Shown: positions 39,876 to 50,844 of the stretch, one piece after another
Position numbering within the stretch: position 1 is the stretch's first letter
How the letters are laid out: every line of letters begins with the position of its first letter
Assembly: GCA_050951925.1 (NCBI GenBank)
Contig: JBMNJZ010000001.1
Location: forward strand, 1,427,015 to 1,491,014
Source: Saccharofermentanales bacterium
GTDB taxonomy: Bacteria > Bacillota > Clostridia > Saccharofermentanales > DTU023
Reading direction: 5' to 3'
DNA length: 64,000 bases
Translations under genes and position numbers: made by a program
The notes under the pieces: generated by a model
Told to the model about the DNA's origin: nothing
The model's database searches: none
Seen by the model: only the letters and a program-made list of their open reading frames with translations

Positions 39876-39962
39876 GCGGAAATGGCGGAATTGGCAGACG
39901 CGCTAGTTTCAGGTACTAGTGATCGATCGATCATGCAGGTTCAAGTCCTGTTTTCCGCACCA
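39876..39962 (+). tRNA. tRNA-Leu (anticodon CAG), long variable arm, CCA encoded
   Basis: Acceptor GCGGAAA/TTTCCGC, anticodon stem CTAGT/ACTAG with loop TTCAGGT, variable stem TGATCG/CGATCA, T-loop TTCAAGT. Confidence 0.88.
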
Positions 39963-39967
39963 ATCAA

Positions 39968-40011
39968 ATGCAGTGATTGATACATATGTATCGTTCACTG
40001 CATCGTTTTTT
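39968..40011 (+). terminator. Intrinsic terminator after tRNA-Leu
   Basis: ATGCAGTGA ... TCACTGCAT with an inner GATACA/TGTATC extension, followed by CGTTTTTT. Confidence 0.7.
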
Positions 40012-40027
40012 AACCCCTAAAAACCCA

Positions 40028-40081
40028 GATAACAAAAATCAACATCGCCTCACGATTCTAAAGCACAAGCGTAAGGCGATG
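40028..40081 (-). terminator. Possible terminator of the island operon
   Basis: Minus strand: CATCGCCT-(23-nt loop)-AGGCGATG followed by TTGATTTTTGTT. The large loop makes this weak. Confidence 0.35.
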
Positions 40082-40107
40082 CGCACATAACAAATCAAAA
40101 CAAATAA

Positions 40108-41715
40108 CTAAACACTGAAATCTGGTGTGTTCTCTCTGCAGTAGGAAACCCAGTTGCCGTTTTCGATTAATTCTTCTCGACCGAGCTGGCGGAACAACTC
40201 CATACGGCTCTGTGGGGCGAGATCGTACCGCAGGGCAGCCGACGCAAAGAGATGTTTCATTTTTTCATGGTCAATGCTCTTTCGAGCCAAGGACTGCTTG
40301 CCGTAGTATCCCGAAACAAAAACCGTCACCGCGGAAAGACTTCCCCATAGAATCTTAATCCAAACTCGCAAAGTAAAACCGGAAAGAACAATCACCATGG
40401 CGTTCCGGAAGAAATACTCCAAAACCAAGGCTAACAGCCAGAGTACTATGGTGCAAGTCAACATGGCGCGGGTAGCGAGTTCCTGGGTACGGTGCTTTCC
40501 GGCATCCCTGCGCTCAGCTCTTTCGTGGTAGGCTCTTTGGCCGTCAATCCAGGCCTTTTTTACCACATCGGCCGGCACGGCTTCCTTTTCCGGAGCGCCG
40601 ATTAAAAGCGCATAGACCGCGCTTTTTACCCACGTGGCATCGTGCTTCTGTGTCCAGGTAAAGTCATCGCAAACACATTCCCTGCTGCCAAGCGCATAAA
40701 GATATAGCTGAACCCGCAAGGCCTCCGCCAGAGCTCTATACTGTAGGTATTTATCGTGCTGCCGCCGGCGCGCAATCTGTTGGTAGAAAAGAGCATATAG
40801 GACTATGGCACCGCCATATCCGATTAGACATATATTGAGCTCGGCCTCATCGTAGAGCAGGTAAAACATCACCAGCATTACGCTGAATGCGGCAAGCACG
40901 CCCATAATCTTTAAGTAGTGTTTCTGCCACTTCATCGAGAGCTGATCCGCCGCATCATATACCTTTTGAAGCCTGTTGCTTACAGCATGATGAATATATT
41001 CCGGAGCTAAGAGCGGTTCGACGTCCTGAAAGCTTTCCTTTCGCACATCTCGGTTAAAGCGATCTGTTTGTGCCAACACTTCCTTCAGGCTCCCCGCTTC
41101 ATTTTCCAGCAAGTTCACCGTAACGGGGAATTCCTGAGTTTTCGATACTCTGGGTGTAGCGATGTGGATTACCGCGCCCTCATTAGAGGGGCGGAACATT
41201 TTGCCGTTCTGATAATCGCCTTTCAACATAAAGTCCACAGCCTCTGCCGTTCCGCATCCATGCTCCGAACCAGGCTCTCCGTTCCACAGCGCAAGCAGTA
41301 CATGGCTGTGAGCAGCCACGTAAATACCTGTCTGGCGATAAAGATTGTCTCGTTCTTCTCCTTCCGGCCCGCTATAAGGAACCACGAACACATCCGCGGC
41401 CTTGTTTCGCAGGGCTTGATACTCTTCCGACTCTTCGGCACTAAAGTCCTTGCGGTACTCCTCTTCGGGCATGGGAAGCGGGCAATAGAGCGGAATTTGC
41501 AGAGAAAACGCCACGCGGGCACAGAGTTGATCTGCCCCCGCCGCCAGTGAATTCAGCATCCAAACAGGAGAATTGGGATGCTTCCGTTGAATCTTTTGTA
41601 ATTCTCCTGAAACGGCATTTTCCAGTGCGGGGATATCCTCCTTACGGATATCCCTGTGGCCGGTAACACCCACCACGATGGGTATTGTGTTCTTGTTTGC
41701 CTGTGTGTCGCTCAT
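40108..41715 (-). CDS. SLOG-domain (YpsA/DprA/LOG-like) protein with a C-terminal four-TM module (SLATT/LSDAT/DUF4231-like)
   Basis: N-terminus has IVVGVTGHRD, LAAGADQL, PLYCPLP and GCGTAEAV, which match the Rossmann-like SLOG pattern of YpsA/LOG. The C-terminal half has two pairs of TM helices, each preceded by an amphipathic helix (KWQKHYLKIMGVL.., WIDGQRAYHERAERR..). Start at MSDTQ, 20 nt after the upstream stop. Confidence 0.6.
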   Translation of the reverse strand: MSDTQANKNTIPIVVGVTGHRDIRKEDIPALENAVSGELQKIQRKHPNSPVWMLNSLAAGADQLCARVAFSLQIPLYCPLPMPEEEYRKDFSAEESEEYQALRNKAADVFVVPYSGPEGEERDNLYRQTGIYVAAHSHVLLALWNGEPGSEHGCGTAEAVDFMLKGDYQNGKMFRPSNEGAVIHIATPRVSKTQEFPVTVNLLENEAGSLKEVLAQTDRFNRDVRKESFQDVEPLLAPEYIHHAVSNRLQKVYDAADQLSMKWQKHYLKIMGVLAAFSVMLVMFYLLYDEAELNICLIGYGGAIVLYALFYQQIARRRQHDKYLQYRALAEALRVQLYLYALGSRECVCDDFTWTQKHDATWVKSAVYALLIGAPEKEAVPADVVKKAWIDGQRAYHERAERRDAGKHRTQELATRAMLTCTIVLWLLALVLEYFFRNAMVIVLSGFTLRVWIKILWGSLSAVTVFVSGYYGKQSLARKSIDHEKMKHLFASAALRYDLAPQSRMELFRQLGREELIENGNWVSYCRENTPDFSV

Positions 41716-41735
41716 TCTTAACGGTCTCTTTTTTA

Positions 41736-43718
41736 TTACATTCTGTAAACAGTCAAGCCGTCGTACCAACGAATGAGCTCCAACATCTTTTCCATGGGCA
41801 CGGCATCCTTGGTTTTTTCCGCTTCTGGCAATTGTTCAAAGGGAACCATATCGTGATGCATGCGGGTACATTCTCGCATGATATTGTCGTTCTTGCCGTT
41901 CGGCAGCTTTCCGACATGGCCGGTACCGAATTGCCAGCCCATATCACTCTTCTCGTCGCACCAGCGCCGGTGCTCCGCTCCGGCGATAACTTCCATATCC
42001 GCAGGAGTAAAATGAGCAACAGTTTCATAGTCTACGGCACGATCAGTATAAAAGCAGTTGATCTTTTCCAGCACGGCGGCAAATCCCTTGGCCTGCGCGA
42101 TATTAGAAAGCTTATACTCAAGAGAAAGATCCTCTTCAAAAGCCCGCACCATATCTTCGGGTGTTCCGGCGCCGCAGTAGCTAGCGTGGAGAGACAGAGC
42201 GAAACGATAGAAGTTCAGATAATTGCTGTCGGAGAGATACAGCCCCGTACGTTTTGCTTTCTCTACCGAAGAAACGGCGATAGTACCGCTGTAATCCGGC
42301 TTTTTTACATCGCTTTCAAACTTGGGGATGATATCACGAAGAGCCACTATCTCGTCGATATCATCTAAAAACTTACTGCGATGCTCTCGCACGGCACCGG
42401 ACTTTTTGATATAGCCGCCGCTGAGCATATTCTGATAGTCTTTACTGTCGAGGGTTCTGTCCTTGTAGGCCTTGTCGTAAAAAAAAGTCCACGTTACGCT
42501 ATCCTCCGACGGGAATACCATGTCGAAATCAAAGGCGTAAATATCGCTGCGGGTATTTTGGCCGTAAGAAGCACGATCCCAGCACTGCAGTTCGTCACAA
42601 AGTATCAAAAGGTAGGCCAGTGGTTGACCGTCCTTAAGACGCAAAGGCTCGTCGGTATAAAGAAAGCTCCGCATGGTGAACTGAAAAAGGCTGTTATGCA
42701 GAATTATGGCGCAAAAACTATCAAGCACGGCTTTCGGGATTTGCTCCAAGCTTTCGATTTCCCGATGACGATTTAGATAAGTCTTCGCCAACACCAGACC
42801 GCTGAAATAAGCATGGTCCATGTAGAGATAGTCCTTCTCCGCCGGGTTCTCGTGAACCGCACGATCTTTAAGAGCTTTTTCCAACTTGTGGCGGCAAAGA
42901 TAGGGCTCGGCCTCCGTGCGGGATAGATAACTTTCGGCCAAGCGTTCAGTAATGGCGTGAGCGTAAAAATCGTTCAAGTCTCCTAAACGAGACATGCTGA
43001 ATTCGTCCATGCGCTTATACGACACATAGGGAGCGAAACCTCTGTCATCGTTGTTATTTTTATCTAACTTACACACATAGGCTTTCATCTGCTGATGAGC
43101 GATTTCAAAGGGATAGCCTATGTCGTGGAAGAGACTGGTCATTCCCCAAAACTCCAGGAAGTGACAGGCCGCTTCCCGCCCTTCCTCAAGGCAGAAGCGA
43201 GCATTATAGGCTTCTCGAAAAAGCCGGTGGTTTTTGTAGATGGAAAGACCTATGCAAAATACATATACACTGTGAGAATAATGGTCACGGTGCCTCATCA
43301 GAAGAGAGCTTGCATTATACTCGTGTTCCGAGAGCATCTCCAACAGAATTCCGGTAGCATCATAACCGGCTCCGAAGGGCTCAAAAATTTCGCAGTAACA
43401 GTAGTAGATGTCAAAAGCGTCTTCCCGTGAACCACTGTCCAAAAAACGACCGATGGCCTGCTCAAAGCTGAGGCGGTCCAAATCGCGTTCCATGTTGAAG
43501 GGAATCCGGCTACGACCGCTGCTACGGCCGTCTAAGTCGTTCAGTTCATGGCGGGAAGGATCAAACTTTAAGTCTTCGCAGCAATCCCGCAGGAAAGACA
43601 GGGAATCCTGCCCGTAACTGCTGCGGCACTGAGGCAGCGGCGGAATAAGCACGGTATCGAAAAGACCGTACTGATCCCGATTTTTCTTTTGCATCTTTTC
43701 CAGGGCACGATAAGCCAT
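41736..43718 (-). CDS. HD-domain phosphohydrolase with a C-terminal RyR (ryanodine-receptor repeat, PF02026-like) domain
   Basis: HD ligand pattern: RHRDHYSHSVYV ... LFHDIGYPFE ... IILHN ... LCDELQCWDR. The C-terminus AEHRRWCDEKSDMGWQFG...HHDMVPFEQLPEAEKTKD matches the RyR-domain consensus (He.W...GW.yG...hp.lvpyeeLpe.ek.kD). Start at MAYRALE (SD AGGAGA), 11 nt after the upstream stop. Confidence 0.65.
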   Translation of the reverse strand: MAYRALEKMQKKNRDQYGLFDTVLIPPLPQCRSSYGQDSLSFLRDCCEDLKFDPSRHELNDLDGRSSGRSRIPFNMERDLDRLSFEQAIGRFLDSGSREDAFDIYYCYCEIFEPFGAGYDATGILLEMLSEHEYNASSLLMRHRDHYSHSVYVFCIGLSIYKNHRLFREAYNARFCLEEGREAACHFLEFWGMTSLFHDIGYPFEIAHQQMKAYVCKLDKNNNDDRGFAPYVSYKRMDEFSMSRLGDLNDFYAHAITERLAESYLSRTEAEPYLCRHKLEKALKDRAVHENPAEKDYLYMDHAYFSGLVLAKTYLNRHREIESLEQIPKAVLDSFCAIILHNSLFQFTMRSFLYTDEPLRLKDGQPLAYLLILCDELQCWDRASYGQNTRSDIYAFDFDMVFPSEDSVTWTFFYDKAYKDRTLDSKDYQNMLSGGYIKKSGAVREHRSKFLDDIDEIVALRDIIPKFESDVKKPDYSGTIAVSSVEKAKRTGLYLSDSNYLNFYRFALSLHASYCGAGTPEDMVRAFEEDLSLEYKLSNIAQAKGFAAVLEKINCFYTDRAVDYETVAHFTPADMEVIAGAEHRRWCDEKSDMGWQFGTGHVGKLPNGKNDNIMRECTRMHHDMVPFEQLPEAEKTKDAVPMEKMLELIRWYDGLTVYRM

Positions 43719-43729
43719 GTTTTCTCCTA

Positions 43730-44710
43730 TCAGTTCATAACTTCTACTGTAAACGGAGCATTCTCCGGAATCTCCACCGGGAAAATATTTGCCATTATGC
43801 ATACAGTCTCCAGCTCTGCGCAATAAAGCAAAGGTTCCAGAGTTTCCAATTCCCCGCCGGCTATGCTAATTTTGCGAAGTTGAGGGAAATACTGCATGTA
43901 TTTAAGCAGCTCCTCGTTGCAATTATTAAGCCAAATCTCATCATTTGAACAGGTTGTCAAATTCTCGTAGGTCAGAGGTGTCTCCTGGCCCCAATCGTAA
44001 AAGCCAATGGCATCATATAGCATCTCCCGGGTCTTTTCCGACTCAAAGACTATCTCTTCCGTCAGCTTTTGATTGGTCTGCTCAAAGATACCGTGGGTAA
44101 TGACATTGGATCCCATCTGTACCACTTCTTTCGGCTCCGGCTGCTCTGCAAGCGCCACCGGCGCAAGGCCGGGGAGCATATCGTTGAACCAACCGTTATT
44201 CAGGCCGTAGACACCTGTGCCAAGTGCGATTATGAGGCAGACCGCAACGGCGATGATAGCTGTCCAGAAGTTACCCTTCTTTGCGGTACCGACACCTCGT
44301 TCATAGCCGGTGACTCCATCGCCTATGAGGACATCGTCCAGCAAGGCTCGAAGCTCTGCGTATTCCTTAACGGTCTCACATCCGGAAAGCTTGGGATGGA
44401 CTTTATCCCCCAGGGTAAACTGATATACTGGGCGAGTATCCGCTCCGGCGTGCACCACTTCGTTTTCGCAGTTGGGAGAGATTAAGGATTCTTCCGACAC
44501 AAACACCAATACCGCGGAGGCGGCGCGGAGGTGATCTTCTATGTTCTTCGGCCATTCACTGCCCGGGGCTATGCCTTCGTCATACCAGAGCCTATATTTC
44601 TCGGAAAAAAGGGCTTCGATTATGGGCATCACCTTTTCGGAATTCCGGTGGGCATAGCTTACGAAGATATATGGCTCGCGGCCTTCATAAGCGGGAATAC
44701 GTTCACTCAT
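43730..44710 (-). CDS. TIR domain - single TM - extracytoplasmic domain with short LRR-like C-terminus
   Basis: N-terminus matches the TIR_2 pattern: PYIFVSYAHRNSEK...RLWYDEGIAPGSEW...AVLVFVSEESLISPNCENEVVHA. TM is FWTAIIAVAVCLIIALGTGVYGL with Lys on the N-side. The C-terminus has L..L..I.I-type repeats. Start at MSERIP (SD AAAGGAGGG). Confidence 0.7.
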   Translation of the reverse strand: MSERIPAYEGREPYIFVSYAHRNSEKVMPIIEALFSEKYRLWYDEGIAPGSEWPKNIEDHLRAASAVLVFVSEESLISPNCENEVVHAGADTRPVYQFTLGDKVHPKLSGCETVKEYAELRALLDDVLIGDGVTGYERGVGTAKKGNFWTAIIAVAVCLIIALGTGVYGLNNGWFNDMLPGLAPVALAEQPEPKEVVQMGSNVITHGIFEQTNQKLTEEIVFESEKTREMLYDAIGFYDWGQETPLTYENLTTCSNDEIWLNNCNEELLKYMQYFPQLRKISIAGGELETLEPLLYCAELETVCIMANIFPVEIPENAPFTVEVMN

Positions 44711-44726
44711 TTTATTCTGCCCTCCT

Positions 44727-45593
44727 TTAGTGTTCCACAACGACAGTGATTCCGGCATTGCATAGATCGCGGGCGAAGATCACTTGGTCTTGGCTGATTT
44801 TTACGATTTCAATACCCTTAACCTGCGCAAGCGGCCACAGGGCTACATTTGAGGGAATATCCGAAACATTTACCGTGGTAGCGGATACTTCTTTGATGTT
44901 TAGGAGTGTGGTAAAAGTTCCGCCCGAGAGGTCGAGTTCACCCACAGCTTTTCCCGCCATGGCGGCAATGCCCTCGTCGCTGTATTTGGCTATATTCACA
45001 TATTTGCTTCCATTCGTGTTCTGCAGAATGTATGCTGCCGACGTGCGCTCACGTATCATCGAGCCAACATACAGGGCAAAGACCAGTACGACTACTGCCA
45101 CCATAGCAGCTATGATGTAATTTCGCTTGCGGTTGAATTTGCGTTTTTCCATGCCTTCGCCTACCATGGCCTGAGTCAGCACCCCGCTTTTAGTTAAGGC
45201 TTCCGCCGTTTCCTCAGGGCTGCCAAGGGCAATCACCGGAATGTTGGCAAGCTGCATGTCCAGGCCGTAGCCGAGCTGAAATTCTCCAAATTTTACACAG
45301 ACAAGGGGCTTTCGCAGGCTCAACAGGTAGTTGATGGCATTGCGGAAGGCGAGGCTTTCTATGCTCTTTTCCGACAGGAACACCACCGCTCCGCTGCAGT
45401 GAGTTATGGTCTCCGCCAGTGCCGCGGGGCTTTGAGCGAACTTGCCGCCGCAACTATCGCAGCTCAGCCTAAAACCGCGGCTCACAAGAATATCCGCAAC
45501 AGCCGCCGCCGCAGGCTCATCGGCCGGACTACAACCTATATAGGCAAAATCGCCTATACCTGCATAGGGAAGATAGCTAAAGTGCTTTTTCAT
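44727..45593 (-). CDS. Degenerate TIR-like domain - single TM - small extracytoplasmic LRR-like domain
   Basis: Same architecture and spacing as its neighbours (DFAYIGCSPADE...AVVFLSEKSIESLAFRNAINYL). TM is YIIAAMVAVVVLVFALYVGSMI, preceded by KRKFNRKRN. Start at MKKHFS (SD AAGGAGAG). Confidence 0.5.
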   Translation of the reverse strand: MKKHFSYLPYAGIGDFAYIGCSPADEPAAAAVADILVSRGFRLSCDSCGGKFAQSPAALAETITHCSGAVVFLSEKSIESLAFRNAINYLLSLRKPLVCVKFGEFQLGYGLDMQLANIPVIALGSPEETAEALTKSGVLTQAMVGEGMEKRKFNRKRNYIIAAMVAVVVLVFALYVGSMIRERTSAAYILQNTNGSKYVNIAKYSDEGIAAMAGKAVGELDLSGGTFTTLLNIKEVSATTVNVSDIPSNVALWPLAQVKGIEIVKISQDQVIFARDLCNAGITVVVEH

Positions 45594-45604
45594 ATTATCT
45601 CTCC

Positions 45605-47203
45605 TTAGTTGTAGTAGTAGTTGTCGCAATACTCGATGACAAAATGTGCGTCTTGCAACTGTTCATCAGCCAGCTCTCTCATATCTGATGAGATAATCAG
45701 GCGTCGCAGAGACTGAAGTTGCTGAACAGGAGTCAGGTCGCTTAGATTCTGACAGAAATGTATGTCCAGAATATCTATACCCTCAAAGAGCTCCAAGCCA
45801 TCCAAAGAGGATACTGTACTCCAGCCTAAACTTAGTACACCACCGAGATTGATAACAATACCGCTCAATTCCCGCAAAGAGTCTATTTGCAGGCCTTGCC
45901 ATGAAAACTCACGGATGGGTTTTCCTTCTATATATGGCAATACGGCCTGCAATTCATCCTGATCAACAAAAAGCTTATCAAAACTCTCTATATCGCCAAG
46001 CGAAGAATACTCATCTATCTGCGTCTCCCTGATATCAAGATGGATGTATGGAAGAGTATTAAGAGCGGGAAGCTTGCTAACCGGGGCAGCGTTTATAATA
46101 AGGCAGTTCAGCTTATTTGCCGTACTCAGCGCTGAAATGTCCCTCACATTGGTAGCACCTATGTTCAGGTGCTCAAGCTTTGATAGCCTTTCGACACCCG
46201 AAATGTCGGAGACGTAAGTCGCATCCAACATAACGAACACAAGATTTTGGCAGTCCCACAGCGGCGAGGGATCGGTAATATCTGTGGCGGTAAGGAAGAT
46301 GGCTTCCAGATTGCTGAGTGCCCCTATTCCCTCTATAGAAGAAATGGGGTTGGCGCTCAGGTCGAGATAGCTAAGTTTTTTCAAGCAAAACAAGGGTGAA
46401 ATATCGGTAATTTGGTTGCCGCAGATGCAAAGGTATTCCAAATTGGGCATATACGAGAAGATTTCAAGATCTTCGGAAGTCAGGCTGCCCACCGGGACAG
46501 GTCCTTGAACTTCCATATTGTCGTTTACGCTCATACCAAATTGAACAGCACTACGATCGCTGAACTCATACCAGCCGTGAACAAGACTGCCGTATGCCCG
46601 GTCTCCCACAATATAGAGTTCCGTAATGCTCTCTAAATCTTCTCTGGTCAAGCCCCAGCGCTGTGCCGCATTCTCGAGCGCCTTGGCGGGAGCAATAAGC
46701 AGAGGATTCACAACAGCAAAGAACAAAATTACTGCAGCTACAATTGGCGCCGTCACCATTGTGATGGCACGATTGCGCTGATATTTCTTCTGGGCCTTGG
46801 TTACGGCCATATCTCGGAAAATGAAAGCTTCTTTCAGCTTGGAGACAAAAGCCTCGTCCATGTTGTCCGCGAACAGCGCCTGCTGGCTGCCGAGCTGCAT
46901 GGTGCTCCAAGGCGTAGAGGGGATATCTTCCAAATATACACTGAGTATTTTCTGTCCGCGGGCAACAGCCGTATCCACTATGGAGCGAAAGCGTTCGCTT
47001 GCGGAGAACTCCGCCGTAACGAATAGCAGCACGCCGAAGGCCCGTTGCAAGCGCCCTTTTTCGCGGCGGTCGAAGCGGTCCGCGTACCAGAATTGTGCGC
47101 CATCTACGGCCAAAGTTTCCAGCACCGGAAGAATCTGTTCCTCTTGTTCCCGCGGGAATGCAACATAGATATAGGGTCTGTCATTTTTGCAGTAGCGTTC
47201 CAT
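45605..47203 (-). CDS. TIR-like domain - single TM - leucine-rich-repeat (internalin-type, 22-aa period) ectodomain
   Basis: N-terminus: PYIYVAFPREQEE...QFWYADRF...VLLFVTAEFSASERF. TM at aa 146-171, preceded by KAQKKYQRNR. From aa ~252 there are at least 7 consecutive 22-residue repeats of L..L..L.L....I.DISPL type. SD is AGGAGGGAATC. Confidence 0.7.
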   Translation of the reverse strand: MERYCKNDRPYIYVAFPREQEEQILPVLETLAVDGAQFWYADRFDRREKGRLQRAFGVLLFVTAEFSASERFRSIVDTAVARGQKILSVYLEDIPSTPWSTMQLGSQQALFADNMDEAFVSKLKEAFIFRDMAVTKAQKKYQRNRAITMVTAPIVAAVILFFAVVNPLLIAPAKALENAAQRWGLTREDLESITELYIVGDRAYGSLVHGWYEFSDRSAVQFGMSVNDNMEVQGPVPVGSLTSEDLEIFSYMPNLEYLCICGNQITDISPLFCLKKLSYLDLSANPISSIEGIGALSNLEAIFLTATDITDPSPLWDCQNLVFVMLDATYVSDISGVERLSKLEHLNIGATNVRDISALSTANKLNCLIINAAPVSKLPALNTLPYIHLDIRETQIDEYSSLGDIESFDKLFVDQDELQAVLPYIEGKPIREFSWQGLQIDSLRELSGIVINLGGVLSLGWSTVSSLDGLELFEGIDILDIHFCQNLSDLTPVQQLQSLRRLIISSDMRELADEQLQDAHFVIEYCDNYYYN

Positions 47204-47247
47204 GATTCCCTCCTGAGTTGTTGCGATATATGATTACAAAATTGGCA

Positions 47248-47282
47248 GTATGATATTATCATACATGCTTTCTGTCTTACAA
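47248..47282 (-). promoter_or_regulatory. Predicted promoter of the island operon with an overlapping perfect palindrome (operator candidate)
   Basis: Minus strand: TTGTAA (47282-47277), 18 nt, TG-n-TAATAT (47258-47253). The 17-nt palindrome GTATGATA-N-TATCATAC (47248-47264) covers the -10. Confidence 0.45.
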
Positions 47283-47550: not shown

Positions 47551-48129
47551 ATGAAAAAGTTAAGCTGTTTGATTGCTCTGTTGCTTGCCTTCTTCATGCT
47601 CCTGCCTTTTACAGGCTGCAAGCAAAATTCGCCTGCAGGATCAGATAACAAGGTATCCGGTTCACCTGCCGCAAACGATTCTTCCATCGTATCCGAACCG
47701 AAGGATAGTTCTGAGCCGGCGCTTCCGGCGGAACCGTCCTTTGTCAAGCACAATTCCATTCAATCCGCACTTCCGTCACCTGGAGATGCCACAGTAACAA
47801 TGACCGGCGACGAGACTATTGATCTGACCGGCATCCCGCTTGCGGGGCGCAAGGAAATCATTTTGGACGGCCACATACTGACATTGACTGGAGCTTACGG
47901 TATTTCAGCGGATGCAGTTTTGGATATCAAGCCGGGCAATGGCACAAACGGAGGTACGCTTAACATGGCGGGTATGACATTTGACTTCGGCTTCCTTGAC
48001 GGAGAGCTTCCTCCCGAAAAGGCACTCGTGGAGATACGCCCCGGCGTAACGATAGTCGAACCGGAATACCCGGAAGGTGTCAGCATAAGGGAGTTCCCGG
48101 GCGTATTGACAGTCATTCAATGTGATTAA
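47551..48129 (+). CDS. Predicted secreted lipoprotein of unknown function
   Basis: Signal peptide with lipobox LPFTGC, Ser/Pro-rich linker, small Gly/Thr-rich C-terminal domain. Divergent from the TIR operon. Confidence 0.6.
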   Translation: MKKLSCLIALLLAFFMLLPFTGCKQNSPAGSDNKVSGSPAANDSSIVSEPKDSSEPALPAEPSFVKHNSIQSALPSPGDATVTMTGDETIDLTGIPLAGRKEIILDGHILTLTGAYGISADAVLDIKPGNGTNGGTLNMAGMTFDFGFLDGELPPEKALVEIRPGVTIVEPEYPEGVSIREFPGVLTVIQCD

Positions 48130-48315: not shown

Positions 48316-50844
48316 TTGAAAGGAAGAATCACCTTGGCTGCTAAAGATACATTGCTTGTCAGCAAAATCTCGGTTCGCCAACTGGTTGCCGGCGCAAGAA
48401 AAACCGGCAGCCTGACCAACCCCAGCTATAGCTCCGCCCGGGCCGCGGATGGTATTAAAGCACATAAGAAATTTGTCAATTTGATGGCGGAACAAATTGA
48501 TAATCCTGATCTGTTCAGCGAATTTTCTTTAGAAACATCTTTTACCACAGAAATTTGCGGTTTGCAGTATCGATTGGAGATCTCAGGTCGTTGCGACCTC
48601 TGGTACCCGGACCGGGATGGTCCATGCCTAATTGAGATCAAAAGTTATCGCGGACAAGAGCGTGCTGAGAATGAGTCCGGGAATTCATTGCACTGGGCTC
48701 AGGCGGAAACTTATGCTTATATGCTCCTGCAAAAAGTTCCTGCCCTGCAAAACTGCAGAAAGATACGTGTCTGTTTAGCTTATGTTGCAGTAGATAGCAA
48801 TGATTATTATTTAATCGAACGAGCATTCGATTCGCCCGCTCTGAAGAAAAAATTCACAGATCTCTGTACCGGCTGGCTGCAAAATACTGTCAGCCTGATA
48901 GATTACCGGAAGACTAGAAATCTTGTGAATGCTGCTGGGGGCTTCCCCTATGACAATCTGCGTGAAGGCCAACGCTTTTTTATGCGGCAGGCAATTGCGG
49001 CTATGCGCGATCGCAGCACTTTATTTGCCCAAGCTGCTACAGGCAGTGGCAAAACAATGGCGGTAGTTTATCCTGCGTTAAAAGCGCAGGCAGCCGGACT
49101 CGGTTCAGTCATCTTCTATCTGACAAATATGTCGTCAACGAAATTGATAGCAGAACAGGCTATTGCCGATTTAAGACAGAATGGCTTTCTGGTACGCAGT
49201 CTCACTTTGACTGCCAAAGAAAAAATTTGTCTGCAACCAGATCTCTACTGCGAAATGAAGATTTGCCCTTATGCTCAGGACTATTATGAAAGATTGCCCT
49301 CCGCTCTCCTGGAGCTGGCATCCATAAAAATGGCGGATCACGATACGATTATAGAGATTGCGCAGAAGCATAGACTGTGTCCTTTTGAGTTGCAGCTGGA
49401 CTTTTCTGAATGGTGCGACATTGTGATCGGCGACTACAATTATCTTTTTGATCCTCGCGTTTATCTGAGCAGATTTTTTGCCGACGACAATAAGGATGCG
49501 CATATTATCCTGATCGATGAAGCCCATAATTTGCCGGCAAGGTCACGACAGATGTACAGCTCCTTCCTGGAGCTTTCCGCTTTACGCCGAGTTGAGCAAC
49601 TGCTGTCGGCACCTGACATCGCCGATCTGGGACCCACTAAACATGCTTTGAACCGCCTTCGTCAAATAATTGGCTGTTTAGATGGGCTTCTGCCTTATTT
49701 GCGCGACCTTGGATTGCAGTTCGCGGATCAAAATTTATTGGGTACGAAAATTAACCAACAGGAACTGCTGCGCACGGAACGGTTCATTGGAGCCAGAAAA
49801 CCTTTGGCGAATTTTATCAGCAATATAGGTTCTTTAGTCTATGCTTTAGGGCAGTTTCTGGATTGCTTCCCGGAATGGGAGTCGCGGCGTACCGTGCTGG
49901 AACTTTGGTTTGAGCTGAATTTTTTCCTGCGCGTAGCTGAATCCTACTATGACAAAAACTATATCACTATGATCCGTCAAACTGCACCAGACGATCTGAC
50001 GATCGGCTTGCTATGTCTGGATGCGGCCAAAAGTCTTACAAACAGATATTATCGACGCTATCCGATAATCTTTTTCTCTGCGACTTTGAGTCCTGCCTCT
50101 TACTACCAGAGGTTGCTATATTCTTATATGACAGAAAATCCACCGGATTTTCTTCAGCTCGCTTCGCCCTTCGCGTCGCGAAACAGATTTGTGCTTACAG
50201 TTGATCATTATTCTGTTCGCTATCAAGATAGAGCAAATACTCTTTTCCCTATTTTGCGTTTAATTTACCAAGCGGTTCAAATCAGACCAGGACATTATCT
50301 CGTATTTTGCCCGTCATTTGTTTATTTGCGGCAAGTAGCTCAGGCACTGAAACAAATTAACATCTCAGAGGAATGGCAAATTATGATCCAGAAACCTAAA
50401 CTCAGCGAGCAAGAAAAAAACAAATGGTTGGATCGCTTCCGCAACACAGGCGGTAAACCACTATTAGCTTTTGCCTGTCTCGGCAGTATTTTTAGCGAAG
50501 GGATTGATCTAATCGGAGAGCAATTAATTGGCGTGTTTGTTATTGGCACCGGTCTGCCCCGTCCCTCACCGGAACGTGAGCTGATGCGCCAATATTACGA
50601 GCAGGAATTCGGCAGTGGTTTTCACTTTGCCTATACTTTCCCCGGTTTTAATCGGGTTATGCAGGCTGCCGGCCGGCTAATCCGCCATGAGGACGACCGG
50701 GGAATAATCATTCTGATTGATGATCGCTATTCACGTGAAGATTATCGGGAAATTATCCCGACTGACTGGTTGGCGCAATCTGTTCATGATGATGAGGAAA
50801 CATTAGCCTTGATCACAGAATTCTGGGACTGTCAATTGACCTAA
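48316..50844 (+). CDS. DinG/XPD-family (Rad3-like) SF2 helicase with an N-terminal PD-(D/E)xK RecB/Cas4-like nuclease domain
   Basis: N-terminus has GRCD...IEIKS plus QAETYAY (the D/ExK and QxxxY motifs). Then Walker A AATGSGKT, four Cys (CLQPDLYCEMKICP...LCPFE, FeS-type), DEAHNL box and C-terminal helicase motifs (QAAGRLIR). Start is uncertain: TTG at 48316 or TTG at 48334. Confidence 0.75.
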   Translation: MKGRITLAAKDTLLVSKISVRQLVAGARKTGSLTNPSYSSARAADGIKAHKKFVNLMAEQIDNPDLFSEFSLETSFTTEICGLQYRLEISGRCDLWYPDRDGPCLIEIKSYRGQERAENESGNSLHWAQAETYAYMLLQKVPALQNCRKIRVCLAYVAVDSNDYYLIERAFDSPALKKKFTDLCTGWLQNTVSLIDYRKTRNLVNAAGGFPYDNLREGQRFFMRQAIAAMRDRSTLFAQAATGSGKTMAVVYPALKAQAAGLGSVIFYLTNMSSTKLIAEQAIADLRQNGFLVRSLTLTAKEKICLQPDLYCEMKICPYAQDYYERLPSALLELASIKMADHDTIIEIAQKHRLCPFELQLDFSEWCDIVIGDYNYLFDPRVYLSRFFADDNKDAHIILIDEAHNLPARSRQMYSSFLELSALRRVEQLLSAPDIADLGPTKHALNRLRQIIGCLDGLLPYLRDLGLQFADQNLLGTKINQQELLRTERFIGARKPLANFISNIGSLVYALGQFLDCFPEWESRRTVLELWFELNFFLRVAESYYDKNYITMIRQTAPDDLTIGLLCLDAAKSLTNRYYRRYPIIFFSATLSPASYYQRLLYSYMTENPPDFLQLASPFASRNRFVLTVDHYSVRYQDRANTLFPILRLIYQAVQIRPGHYLVFCPSFVYLRQVAQALKQINISEEWQIMIQKPKLSEQEKNKWLDRFRNTGGKPLLAFACLGSIFSEGIDLIGEQLIGVFVIGTGLPRPSPERELMRQYYEQEFGSGFHFAYTFPGFNRVMQAAGRLIRHEDDRGIIILIDDRYSREDYREIIPTDWLAQSVHDDEETLALITEFWDCQLT

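Follow-up and report, generated by a model that had tools for sequence, protein, structure and literature searches.

A five-gene operon of membrane-anchored TIR proteins, an HD-RyR protein, and a SLOG-SLATT protein as a candidate surface-sensing relative of Thoeris

RESULTS AND DISCUSSION

In a 64,000-nucleotide stretch of a Saccharofermentanales bacterium genome (GenBank assembly GCA_050951925.1, contig JBMNJZ010000001.1, positions 1,427,015 to 1,491,014 of the forward strand), hereafter the window, five intact minus-strand open reading frames (ORFs), designated P1 to P5, fill positions 40108-47203. They encode three predicted membrane proteins with TIR or TIR-like domains, a putative HD phosphohydrolase with a C-terminal RyR region, and a predicted fusion of a SLOG domain to a SLATT membrane module. 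The P1 to P5 gene families travel together in many genomes on a mobile cassette, and the locus looks like a surface-sensing relative of Thoeris that has not yet been described. With modest confidence, we favor the reading that it is a mobile, Thoeris-like nucleotide-signaling cassette with membrane sensors, in which a cue would be passed to a TIR enzyme, converted into a signal derived from nicotinamide adenine dinucleotide (NAD), and delivered to P5 and P4.

Start codons were assigned as the first ATG behind a ribosome-binding site, and the resulting stop-to-start distances from P1 to P5 are 11, 16, 11, and 20 nucleotides. A preliminary description of the window had proposed the same five ORFs, spacing, and domain order; the first two were confirmed by the ORF listing of the window, and the last was recovered by Pfam and NCBIfam searches, hhalign comparisons, family profiles, and AlphaFold 2 (AF2) models searched with Foldseek, with TIR and SLOG folds found for the N-terminal domains concerned (Pfam, Foldseek, and hhalign). 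The genes and their predicted parts, including transmembrane (TM) helices and leucine-rich repeats (LRRs), are as follows.

45605-47203, minus strand: P1, 532 amino acids; degenerate TIR-like domain (residues 1-135), TM helix (147-165), extracytoplasmic LRR domain (~185-525)
44727-45593, minus strand: P2, 288 amino acids; degenerate TIR-like domain, TM helix (160-178), ectodomain of ~110 amino acids
43730-44710, minus strand: P3, 326 amino acids; canonical TIR domain, TM helix (152-170), ectodomain of ~155 amino acids with LRR-like repeats
41736-43718, minus strand: P4, 660 amino acids; HD motifs RDHxxHS (144-150), FHDIGYP (197-203), DH (301-302), HN (341-342), and LCDELQxW (373-380); C-terminal tandem RyR/Repeat12-like pair (~495-660) keeping H583, W586, H620/621, and K637-D638
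40108-41715, minus strand: P5, 535 amino acids; SLOG domain (~10-225, with GVTGHRD, SLAAGAD, and GCGTAE), SLATT-type four-TM module (~245-500), tail EExxENGxWxSY

Membrane-anchored TIR proteins

P1, P2, and P3 each have one TM helix with a lysine- and arginine-rich flank on its N-side, a topology that would leave the TIR fold in the cytoplasm and the C-terminal part outside the cell. The three are thus predicted to be type-II membrane proteins that hold an N-terminal TIR fold inside and direct an LRR-type domain outward. The P1 ectodomain (~340 residues) was matched by Pfam LRR_4 (5.9e-17) and LRR_8 (7.9e-12) and by an internalin-type LRR model of NCBIfam.

The TIR domain of P3 scored 56.6 bits against Pfam TIR_2 (cut-off 28), and the P1 N-terminus was unscored by this profile. 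The assignment of P1 and P2 was made by profile-profile comparison, in which hhalign aligned the orthologue groups of their N-termini with the canonical TIR group at 98.5% (E = 3.5e-15) for P1 and 99.5% (E = 2.7e-23) for P2. Moreover, 14 ORFs of related loci were matched by all three N-termini. Alignment to reference Thoeris TIR domains indicated that the catalytic glutamate is kept in P3 only (Glu84, codon 44459-44461), where the motif SPNCENE aligns with SRWCPWE and Glu84 falls on the glutamate of the Thoeris SxWCxxE motif; the same column holds Ile75 in P1 and Ala86 in P2. P1 and P2 accordingly have degenerate TIR-like domains without the catalytic residue, and the earlier expectation of three NAD-consuming TIR proteins did not hold.

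The HD-RyR protein

P4 is predicted to be soluble, with no TM helix. Its AF2 model (predicted local distance difference test score [pLDDT] of 86, predicted template modeling score [pTM] of 0.91) had RyR Repeat12 structures (RyR3), including complexes with ATP and AMP-PCP, as its sole confident Foldseek neighbors, and this structural match spans ~200 columns, which argues for an internal tandem pair. A profile of the P4 family, with homologues down to 25% identity, matched RyR repeats in the PDB with an E value of 3.4e-25, and Pfam RyR was found in 32 of the 33 family members examined. Phage RyR-domain proteins bind or cleave isomers of cyclic ADP-ribose (cADPR) via H, W, H, and K/D residues, with nanomolar binding of 2'cADPR, 3'cADPR, and cADPR, or cleavage of the first two (PMC13232231; 10.64898/2026.06.04.730250). 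P4 keeps these ligand residues as H583, W586, H620/621, and K637-D638, positions that vary little or not at all across its family.

For the N-terminal part, a sequence search of the PDB with P4 matched RyR alone and returned nothing for the first 460 residues. The residues H149, H198-D199, D301-H302, H341, and D375 are nevertheless invariant in homologues down to 25% identity, FHDxGYPxE is among the invariant HD-type motifs of the family, and Pfam HD was detected in 4 of 20 remote homologues (best E = 5e-4). An HD-type phosphohydrolase is the probable identity of this region, an assignment that is supported, not structurally proven. The motifs, the Pfam matches of remote homologues, and the match to RyR structures agree with the HD-plus-RyR composition read from P4 in the preliminary description.

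A search of 1.84 billion representatives assigned 247 clusters to the P4 family at E ≤ 1e-30. Some relatives are longer (770 to 1,070 amino acids), and a Pfam search of these found no extra domains; an apparent 1,725-amino-acid P4 fusion at locus L084 was rejected as an ORF-caller artefact produced by antisense low-complexity read-through. At another locus (L088, 5840-6298), the gene for a free-standing RyR-domain protein of 153 amino acids (Pfam RyR, 2.8e-15) precedes a P4 homologue by ~1.7 kb, with neither a TIR gene nor P5 within the 8-kb flanks.

The SLOG-SLATT protein

The AF2 model of P5 (pLDDT of 88.9, pTM of 0.88) gave YpsA (2nx2) as the best Foldseek match of its N-terminal domain (E = 1.5e-4, TM-score of 0.65), and the other matches (ShosA, DprA, a MoCo carrier protein, and TM1055) were likewise SLOG-superfamily folds; a profile sequence search of the PDB with P5 returned no match. 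Among 30 members of the P5 family, NCBIfam SLATT_3 was found in all (best 4e-7), Pfam DUF4231 in 24, and Pfam YAcAr, a YpsA-related SLOG family, in 14, and the cytoplasmic tail EExxENGxWxSY is invariant. Taken together, the model and the family profiles predict that P5 joins a YpsA/DprA-like SLOG fold to a four-TM SLATT module. More than 800 full-length homologues of P5 were found, all unnamed.

Association of the gene families in other genomes

Relatives of P5 were found in at least 361 species-level genomes, mostly those of gut and rumen Clostridia, with further hosts among Eggerthellaceae, Smithella, Leptolinea, Sumerlaeota, and Methanobrevibacter. The association of P5 with its partners was counted at 40 P5 loci having at least 8 kb of sequence on either side, with partners sought within 8 kb. 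At least one TIR gene was present at 31 of these loci, at least two at 21, P4 at 27, and both TIR and P4 at 22, with only four loci having neither. At 20 of 44 loci, P4 is the gene immediately upstream of P5 and has the same orientation. The co-localization of the five families implied by the preliminary description was thus seen in many genomes, and this conservation of the gene set means that the arrangement is not a product of chance.

Full synteny was found in Clostridiales UBA1758 (L007), where the genes run P1, P1', P2, P3, P4, P5 with protein identities of 47-71%, while the closest relative, in a Bacillota metagenome-assembled genome (L092/L093), has the same six-gene operon at a different chromosomal site, with a P4 identity of 90%. 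In the latter genome (14098-15470), the operon directly adjoins genes for an AbiEii toxin and a helix-turn-helix protein, an abortive-infection toxin-antitoxin system. A recurrent rumen layout consists of a degenerate TIR protein (~275 amino acids), a glutamate-bearing TIR-TM protein (~388 amino acids), a degenerate-TIR-TM-LRR protein (930 to 1,290 amino acids), P4, and P5. The catalytic glutamate is retained in one or more TIRs at 47 of 52 loci with TIR genes, 31 of the loci combine glutamate-bearing with degenerate TIRs, and the degenerate classes are conserved families at fixed positions in dozens of operons.

Loci that appeared to be TIR-less by BLAST carry TIR-TM-WD40 propeller, TIR-TM-DUF5050, or TIR-TM-RHS proteins, a multi-pass TM protein (approximately six predicted helices) with a C-terminal TIR, DUF4062-NACHT-WD40 proteins, or kinase-TPR-WD40 proteins. 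Nearly all TIR partner proteins are single-pass with the N-terminus inside, and their outer domains vary among LRRs, WD40 or DUF5050 propellers, and RHS. At L022 (3791-8008), a 1,406-amino-acid DUF4062 (TIR-like)-NACHT-WD40 STAND protein is encoded directly upstream of a P4-P5 pair; by its domain content, it would be a cytoplasmic NLR-like sensor standing in place of the membrane TIR receptors. Ser/Thr kinase-TPR(-WD40) or TIR-FHA-PP2C proteins are encoded within P4/P5 operons at L018 (6510-9851), L071 (4800-7859), and L086 (12014-17063), which suggests a phosphorylation layer in some variants.

At two loci, P4 and TIR genes stand beside a P5 reduced to a SLOG-only form (L086, 17075-17743; L087, 10054-10728) of 222-224 amino acids that ends exactly before the TM region, which points to a role of SLOG independent of the SLATT pore. 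More distant relatives were found on plasmids. A Caballeronia plasmid carries SLOG-DUF4231, TIR, and WD40 genes in a row, and its SLOG-DUF4231 protein aligned with the P5 family over 383 columns (hhalign E = 7.7e-21). On the Bacillus subtilis plasmid pBS72 (L090, 5995-6483), a hypothetical protein of 162 amino acids is 31% identical to residues 15-165 of the P5 SLOG domain; its ORF comes immediately after a TIR-caspase gene pair, the layout of type IV Thoeris, and it may be an unrecognized accessory SLOG protein of type IV systems. Finally, an 8.3-kb record labeled "UNVERIFIED: Bacteriophage sp." (L091, MT836912.1) holds a full-length homologue of P4 (32% identity) with a TIR gene after it: either a phage carries a host-type pair of HD-RyR and TIR genes, or the scaffold is not of viral origin.

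Genomic context and expression signals

Outside the five coding sequences, the features bearing on the expression and borders of the operon are as follows.

47255-47282, minus strand: sigma-70 promoter-like match upstream of P1 (TTGTAA-16-GATAAT, 9 of 12)
40030-40082, minus strand: intrinsic terminator 3' of P5 (13-bp stem at 40042-40082 and U tract at 40030-40041)
39876-39962, plus strand: tRNA-Leu(CAG), just beyond the terminator; context, not a component of the system

The terminator hairpin has a predicted free energy of -23.5 kcal/mol (z = -3.85), and none of 200 shuffles folded equally well. The preliminary description had assigned a Shine-Dalgarno site to every intergenic gap and a promoter to 47253-47282. 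Strong Shine-Dalgarno sequences do precede P1 to P4 (AGGAGGG, AAGGAGAG, AAGGAGGG, and TAGGAGAA, respectively), four of the five starts, but that of P5 is weak (AAGAGA). As to the promoter, a 9-of-12 match is present, but such matches are not enriched in the region (14 versus 10.3 ± 3.2 in shuffles), and a promoter upstream of P1 at 47255-47282 is plausible at most. The best promoter-like match of the region lies within the P4 coding sequence (43314-43342, minus strand, TGGAGA-17-TATAAT, 10 of 12) and could drive P4 or P5 from within the operon, or be a chance match.

The GC content at third codon positions is 0.54-0.57 in the operon versus 0.39-0.42 in the flanking genes pnp, cca, murD, recO, and era. 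Together with the tRNA-Leu gene and a 36-nucleotide palindrome directly after it (39968-40003), this jump would mark the left edge of an acquired block, and the five genes look horizontally acquired; flanking direct repeats, att-like repeats, and an integrase were sought around the island and none was found. On the other side, a divergent ORF of 192 amino acids whose signal peptide is of the lipoprotein type (LLPFTGC) and for which Pfam gave no match (47551-48129, plus strand) lies between the operon and a gene for an 842-amino-acid DinG/XPD-type helicase (48316-50844, plus strand; DEAD_2 and Helicase_C_2), which has an N-terminal PD-(D/E)XK nuclease-like region and is probably a housekeeping gene.

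These observations bear on the question of whether the five genes form a functional unit at all. They might be chance neighbors or a decaying remnant with pseudogene-like TIRs, as the loss of the catalytic glutamate from two of the three TIR domains, the weak ribosome-binding site of P5, and a promoter match no better than chance would allow. We consider this highly improbable: the gene order recurs in UBA1758 and in L092/L093, all ORFs are intact and spaced by 11-20 nucleotides, and the degenerate TIR classes hold fixed positions in dozens of operons. Chance adjacency of the five genes, specifically, was ruled out by the synteny in other genomes.

A proposed signaling scheme

Thoeris TIR proteins make signals derived from ADP-ribose (ADPR), and the SLOG domain of ThsA binds 3'cADPR. 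In the cassette proposed here, an extracytoplasmic cue (phage contact, envelope damage, or a competitor) would be bound by the LRR ectodomains, and the degenerate TIR-like domains of P1 and P2 would serve as scaffolds that, by clustering, activate the catalytic TIR of P3, which would then make a cADPR-type signal from NAD+. The SLOG domain of P5 would read this signal, causing the SLATT module to open or oligomerize, with membrane depolarization followed by growth arrest or abortive infection as the outcome. The RyR domain of P4 may bind the same signal and control or feed the HD phosphohydrolase. For P4, the role of a second effector is favored because the protein persists in loci without the SLATT part; it could instead be the system's own off-switch, degrading the signal, a role for which the phage RyR glycosidase offers a precedent. 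The trigger is the weakest and least supported step of this chain.

The TIR could also be a killing NADase that depletes NAD+, as in CBASS, Pycsar, pAgo, and Avs, with P4 and P5 forming an accessory or independent module that senses or clears ADPR or NAD breakdown products. TIR domains are indeed NAD+-depleting effectors in several systems, some partners of the P4-P5 pair are of the STAND/NACHT type (DUF4062-NACHT-WD40), in which TIR-like domains are usually effectors, and P5 has shrunk to a SLOG-only protein at some loci. We nevertheless judge this quite unlikely, since two sensor domains, SLOG and RyR, fused to outputs and conserved beside the TIRs are the signature of a signal and its effectors; RyR domains bind cADPR isomers at nanomolar affinity, not ADPR alone; and a TIR working with a SLATT protein through cADPR has been demonstrated experimentally in type VII Thoeris.

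Several points weigh against the Thoeris-like reading. To our knowledge, known Thoeris TIR proteins are soluble and sense phage inside the cell, and outward-facing sensors are without precedent. The domain calls for three of the proteins come from family-level profiles, as the single sequences fall below the model cut-offs: P2 scored 21 bits for Pfam TIR_2 (cut-off 28), P4 scored 23 bits for Pfam RyR (cut-off 27.4), and P5 scored 27.1 bits for SLATT_3 (cut-off 45). The SLOG-only variants show that SLOG does not always act via a fused pore. The neighbors in the window are housekeeping genes, with no defense island, and the defense neighbors seen elsewhere (AbiE, McrBC, and the NACHT protein) are anecdotal. 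PADLOC names no known system at the locus, and two "SLOG and 4TM" candidates tested in Escherichia coli gave no defense (10.64898/2025.12.03.692087). For this locus, we infer a defense function and the signaling chemistry, just as we infer the signal, the trigger, and any phage resistance.

Some of these points fit a pathway with no immune role, in which the ectodomains would sense host, dietary, or neighboring-cell cues in gut and rumen Clostridia and the nucleotide would be an ordinary messenger that tunes the membrane conductance of P5 and the nucleotide metabolism of P4, with no killing. The housekeeping surroundings (murD, tRNA-Leu, the DinG-like helicase, recO, and era), the position of most loci outside obvious defense islands, and the E. 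coli results would all be expected of it, as would the internalin-like LRRs, the Ser/Thr kinase, FHA-PP2C, and TPR-WD40 additions typical of signal transduction in some operons, and the concentration of the family in gut and rumen Clostridia. We regard it as unlikely all the same: the operon is mobile and patchily distributed in Bacillota, Actinomycetota, Chloroflexota, Deltaproteobacteria, and Methanobrevibacter; next to output genes that are conserved, the receptor genes occur in several, highly variable copies, the pattern of a conflict system; SLATT, TIR, NACHT-WD40, and AbiE neighbors are all defense-linked; and phages carry RyR-domain sponges against such signals. The Thoeris-like signaling cassette with membrane sensors remains our preferred reading.

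Relationship to described systems

Generic Thoeris traits are found at the locus, namely, a glutamate-bearing TIR (P3) and an adjacent sensor-effector gene with a putative toxic output (P5). The preliminary description had held that this is no already named defense system, and PADLOC-DB v2 agrees: it gave no significant match for any of the five proteins, the best being ThsB1 against P3 (E = 0.0018, 15.5 bits), and no ThsA.

Type III Thoeris, described in Pseudomonas, combines several TIR genes with ThsD, an effector that has a SLOG domain (van den Berg et al. 2024, as cited in later work). The locus shares with it the presence of several TIR-fold genes beside one effector and a P5 SLOG domain of the Smf/DprA/YpsA branch, not the STALD branch of ThsA; P5 is likened to ThsD by description of the SLOG branch and not by sequence. 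Unlike type III as described in the accounts consulted, the locus has HD-RyR, SLATT, and membrane-anchored TIRs with ectodomains, of which one is catalytic.

Type VII Thoeris consists of a TIR and a SLATT effector, ThsH, with canonical cADPR as the signal and a breach of the membrane proposed upon ligand binding (Yirmiya et al., 10.64898/2025.12.03.692087). The coupling of a TIR gene to a SLATT effector is shared, given the presence of SLATT_3 throughout the P5 family. However, ThsH is annotated as SLATT only, and the signal is said to bind between SLATT protomers, whereas P5 carries its SLOG sensor as a distinct N-terminal domain and has four TM helices; moreover, the locus is a five-gene operon with HD-RyR and receptor-type membrane TIRs and not a TIR with a single effector.

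The closest precedent for P5 by composition is a "SLOG and 4TM" or "4TM SLOG" effector beside a TIR, which a preprint of December 2025 includes among its Thoeris candidates without validation (10.64898/2025.12.03.692087, Tables S1 and S2). The domain composition of P5 and its TIR neighbor are shared with this candidate, the likeness being one of description, not of effector sequence. The "SLOG and 4TM" candidates (IMG 2862473379 and 2691454910) have one TIR gene and one effector gene, and they are without HD-RyR, LRR ectodomains, or degenerate TIR partners. The Streptomyces TIR domain of a Table S1 candidate, used as the seed of a protein search, retrieved nothing, and BLAST of the Table S1 candidate TIRs against the Caballeronia TIR was not significant; the candidate TIRs weakly resemble the TIRs of loci related to this operon (E = 4e-4 to 4e-3).

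For P4, the nearest functional relatives are phage anti-Thoeris RyR proteins, the RyDEP glycosidase (PMC13232231) and a RyR Tad sponge (10.64898/2026.06.04.730250). They share with P4 the PF02026/Repeat12 fold and the ligand residues His-x-x-Trp, His, and Lys/Asp, all of which are present in P4. The phage proteins are small, are encoded by the phage itself, and act by destroying or sequestering the signal of the host; P4, in contrast, is host-encoded, fused to HD, located in a TIR operon, and predicted to contain an internal tandem pair and not to form a homodimer.

Animal Toll-like receptors, too, combine an ectodomain of LRRs with one TM helix and a TIR domain in the cytoplasm, and in them, as may be the case here, non-catalytic TIRs likely act through TIR-TIR assembly. 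Toll-like receptors are type-I proteins with an N-terminal LRR and a C-terminal TIR, whereas P1 to P3 are predicted to be inverted, with an N-terminal TIR and type-II topology, and their output would be a NAD-derived small molecule and not the recruitment of an adaptor or kinase. The likeness is best taken as an analogy only, and no sign was obtained that the architecture as a whole goes back to a common ancestor. A bolder form of the scheme would make these proteins bacterial surface receptors in the style of Toll-like receptors, in which LRR, propeller, or RHS domains detect a threat, non-catalytic TIRs recruit a catalytic one, and a cADPR-type messenger acts on RyR-HD and a SLOG-gated pore, the RyR domain being the source from which phage anti-Thoeris proteins were drawn; we put this forward tentatively, as possible but doubtful.

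TRPM2-type channels have an N-terminal SLOG-like MHR1/2 region and are cation channels gated by ADPR. P5 shares with them a SLOG-fold sensor N-terminal to a membrane conductance module and, presumably, an ADPR-type ligand, but its four-TM SLATT module is unlike the unrelated six-TM TRP channel, and Foldseek comparison of P5 with TRPM2 and TRPM8 was not significant (E ≈ 0.13). The MHR1/2 domain of TRPM2 was reportedly assigned to SLOG by Burroughs and coworkers, who are also said to have defined SLOG and SLATT in 2015 (in NAR), and a SLOG-SLATT fusion is already implied by the SLATT name.

The statement of the preliminary description that no system of this composition had been described can thus be kept only in part. 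The SLOG-SLATT fusion, type III and type VII Thoeris, and the "SLOG and 4TM" candidate precede it. Within the literature searched, which did not extend to the 2015 SLOG/SLATT paper, no description was found of TIR receptors that are anchored in the membrane and bear LRR, propeller, or RHS ectodomains, of the pattern of one catalytic plus degenerate TIRs, or of an HD-RyR gene of the host within TIR operons; the part of the claim that stands is that on the TIR-LRR receptors and the HD-RyR partner.

Implications

Glu84 of P3, the RyR pocket of P4, and the SLOG-SLATT module of P5 offer handles for direct tests, and the gut and rumen Clostridia that are home to the family have seldom been a source for defense-system screens. 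The presence of HD-RyR in TIR operons points to a natural cellular role for the RyR/Repeat12 domain, which in 2026 was shown to bind cADPR isomers only in phage counter-defense proteins, and makes HD-RyR a tractable bacterial model for the long-standing question of how, or whether, RyR Repeat12 domains respond to cADPR-type molecules. Should P4 prove to degrade the signal, TIR signaling would have its first off-switch encoded by the host itself. If the Toll-like reading is true, the operon would provide a prokaryotic counterpart of the Toll-like receptor architecture and of the cADPR-to-RyR axis, as well as a cellular source of the RyR-domain sponges and glycosidases that phages use against Thoeris. 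If the signaling cassette works as proposed, it would show a division of labor between scaffold and catalytic TIRs that has so far been linked to animal Toll-like receptor and adaptor biology, and it would represent a surface-surveillance branch of bacterial immune or conflict signaling driven by membrane TIR receptors.

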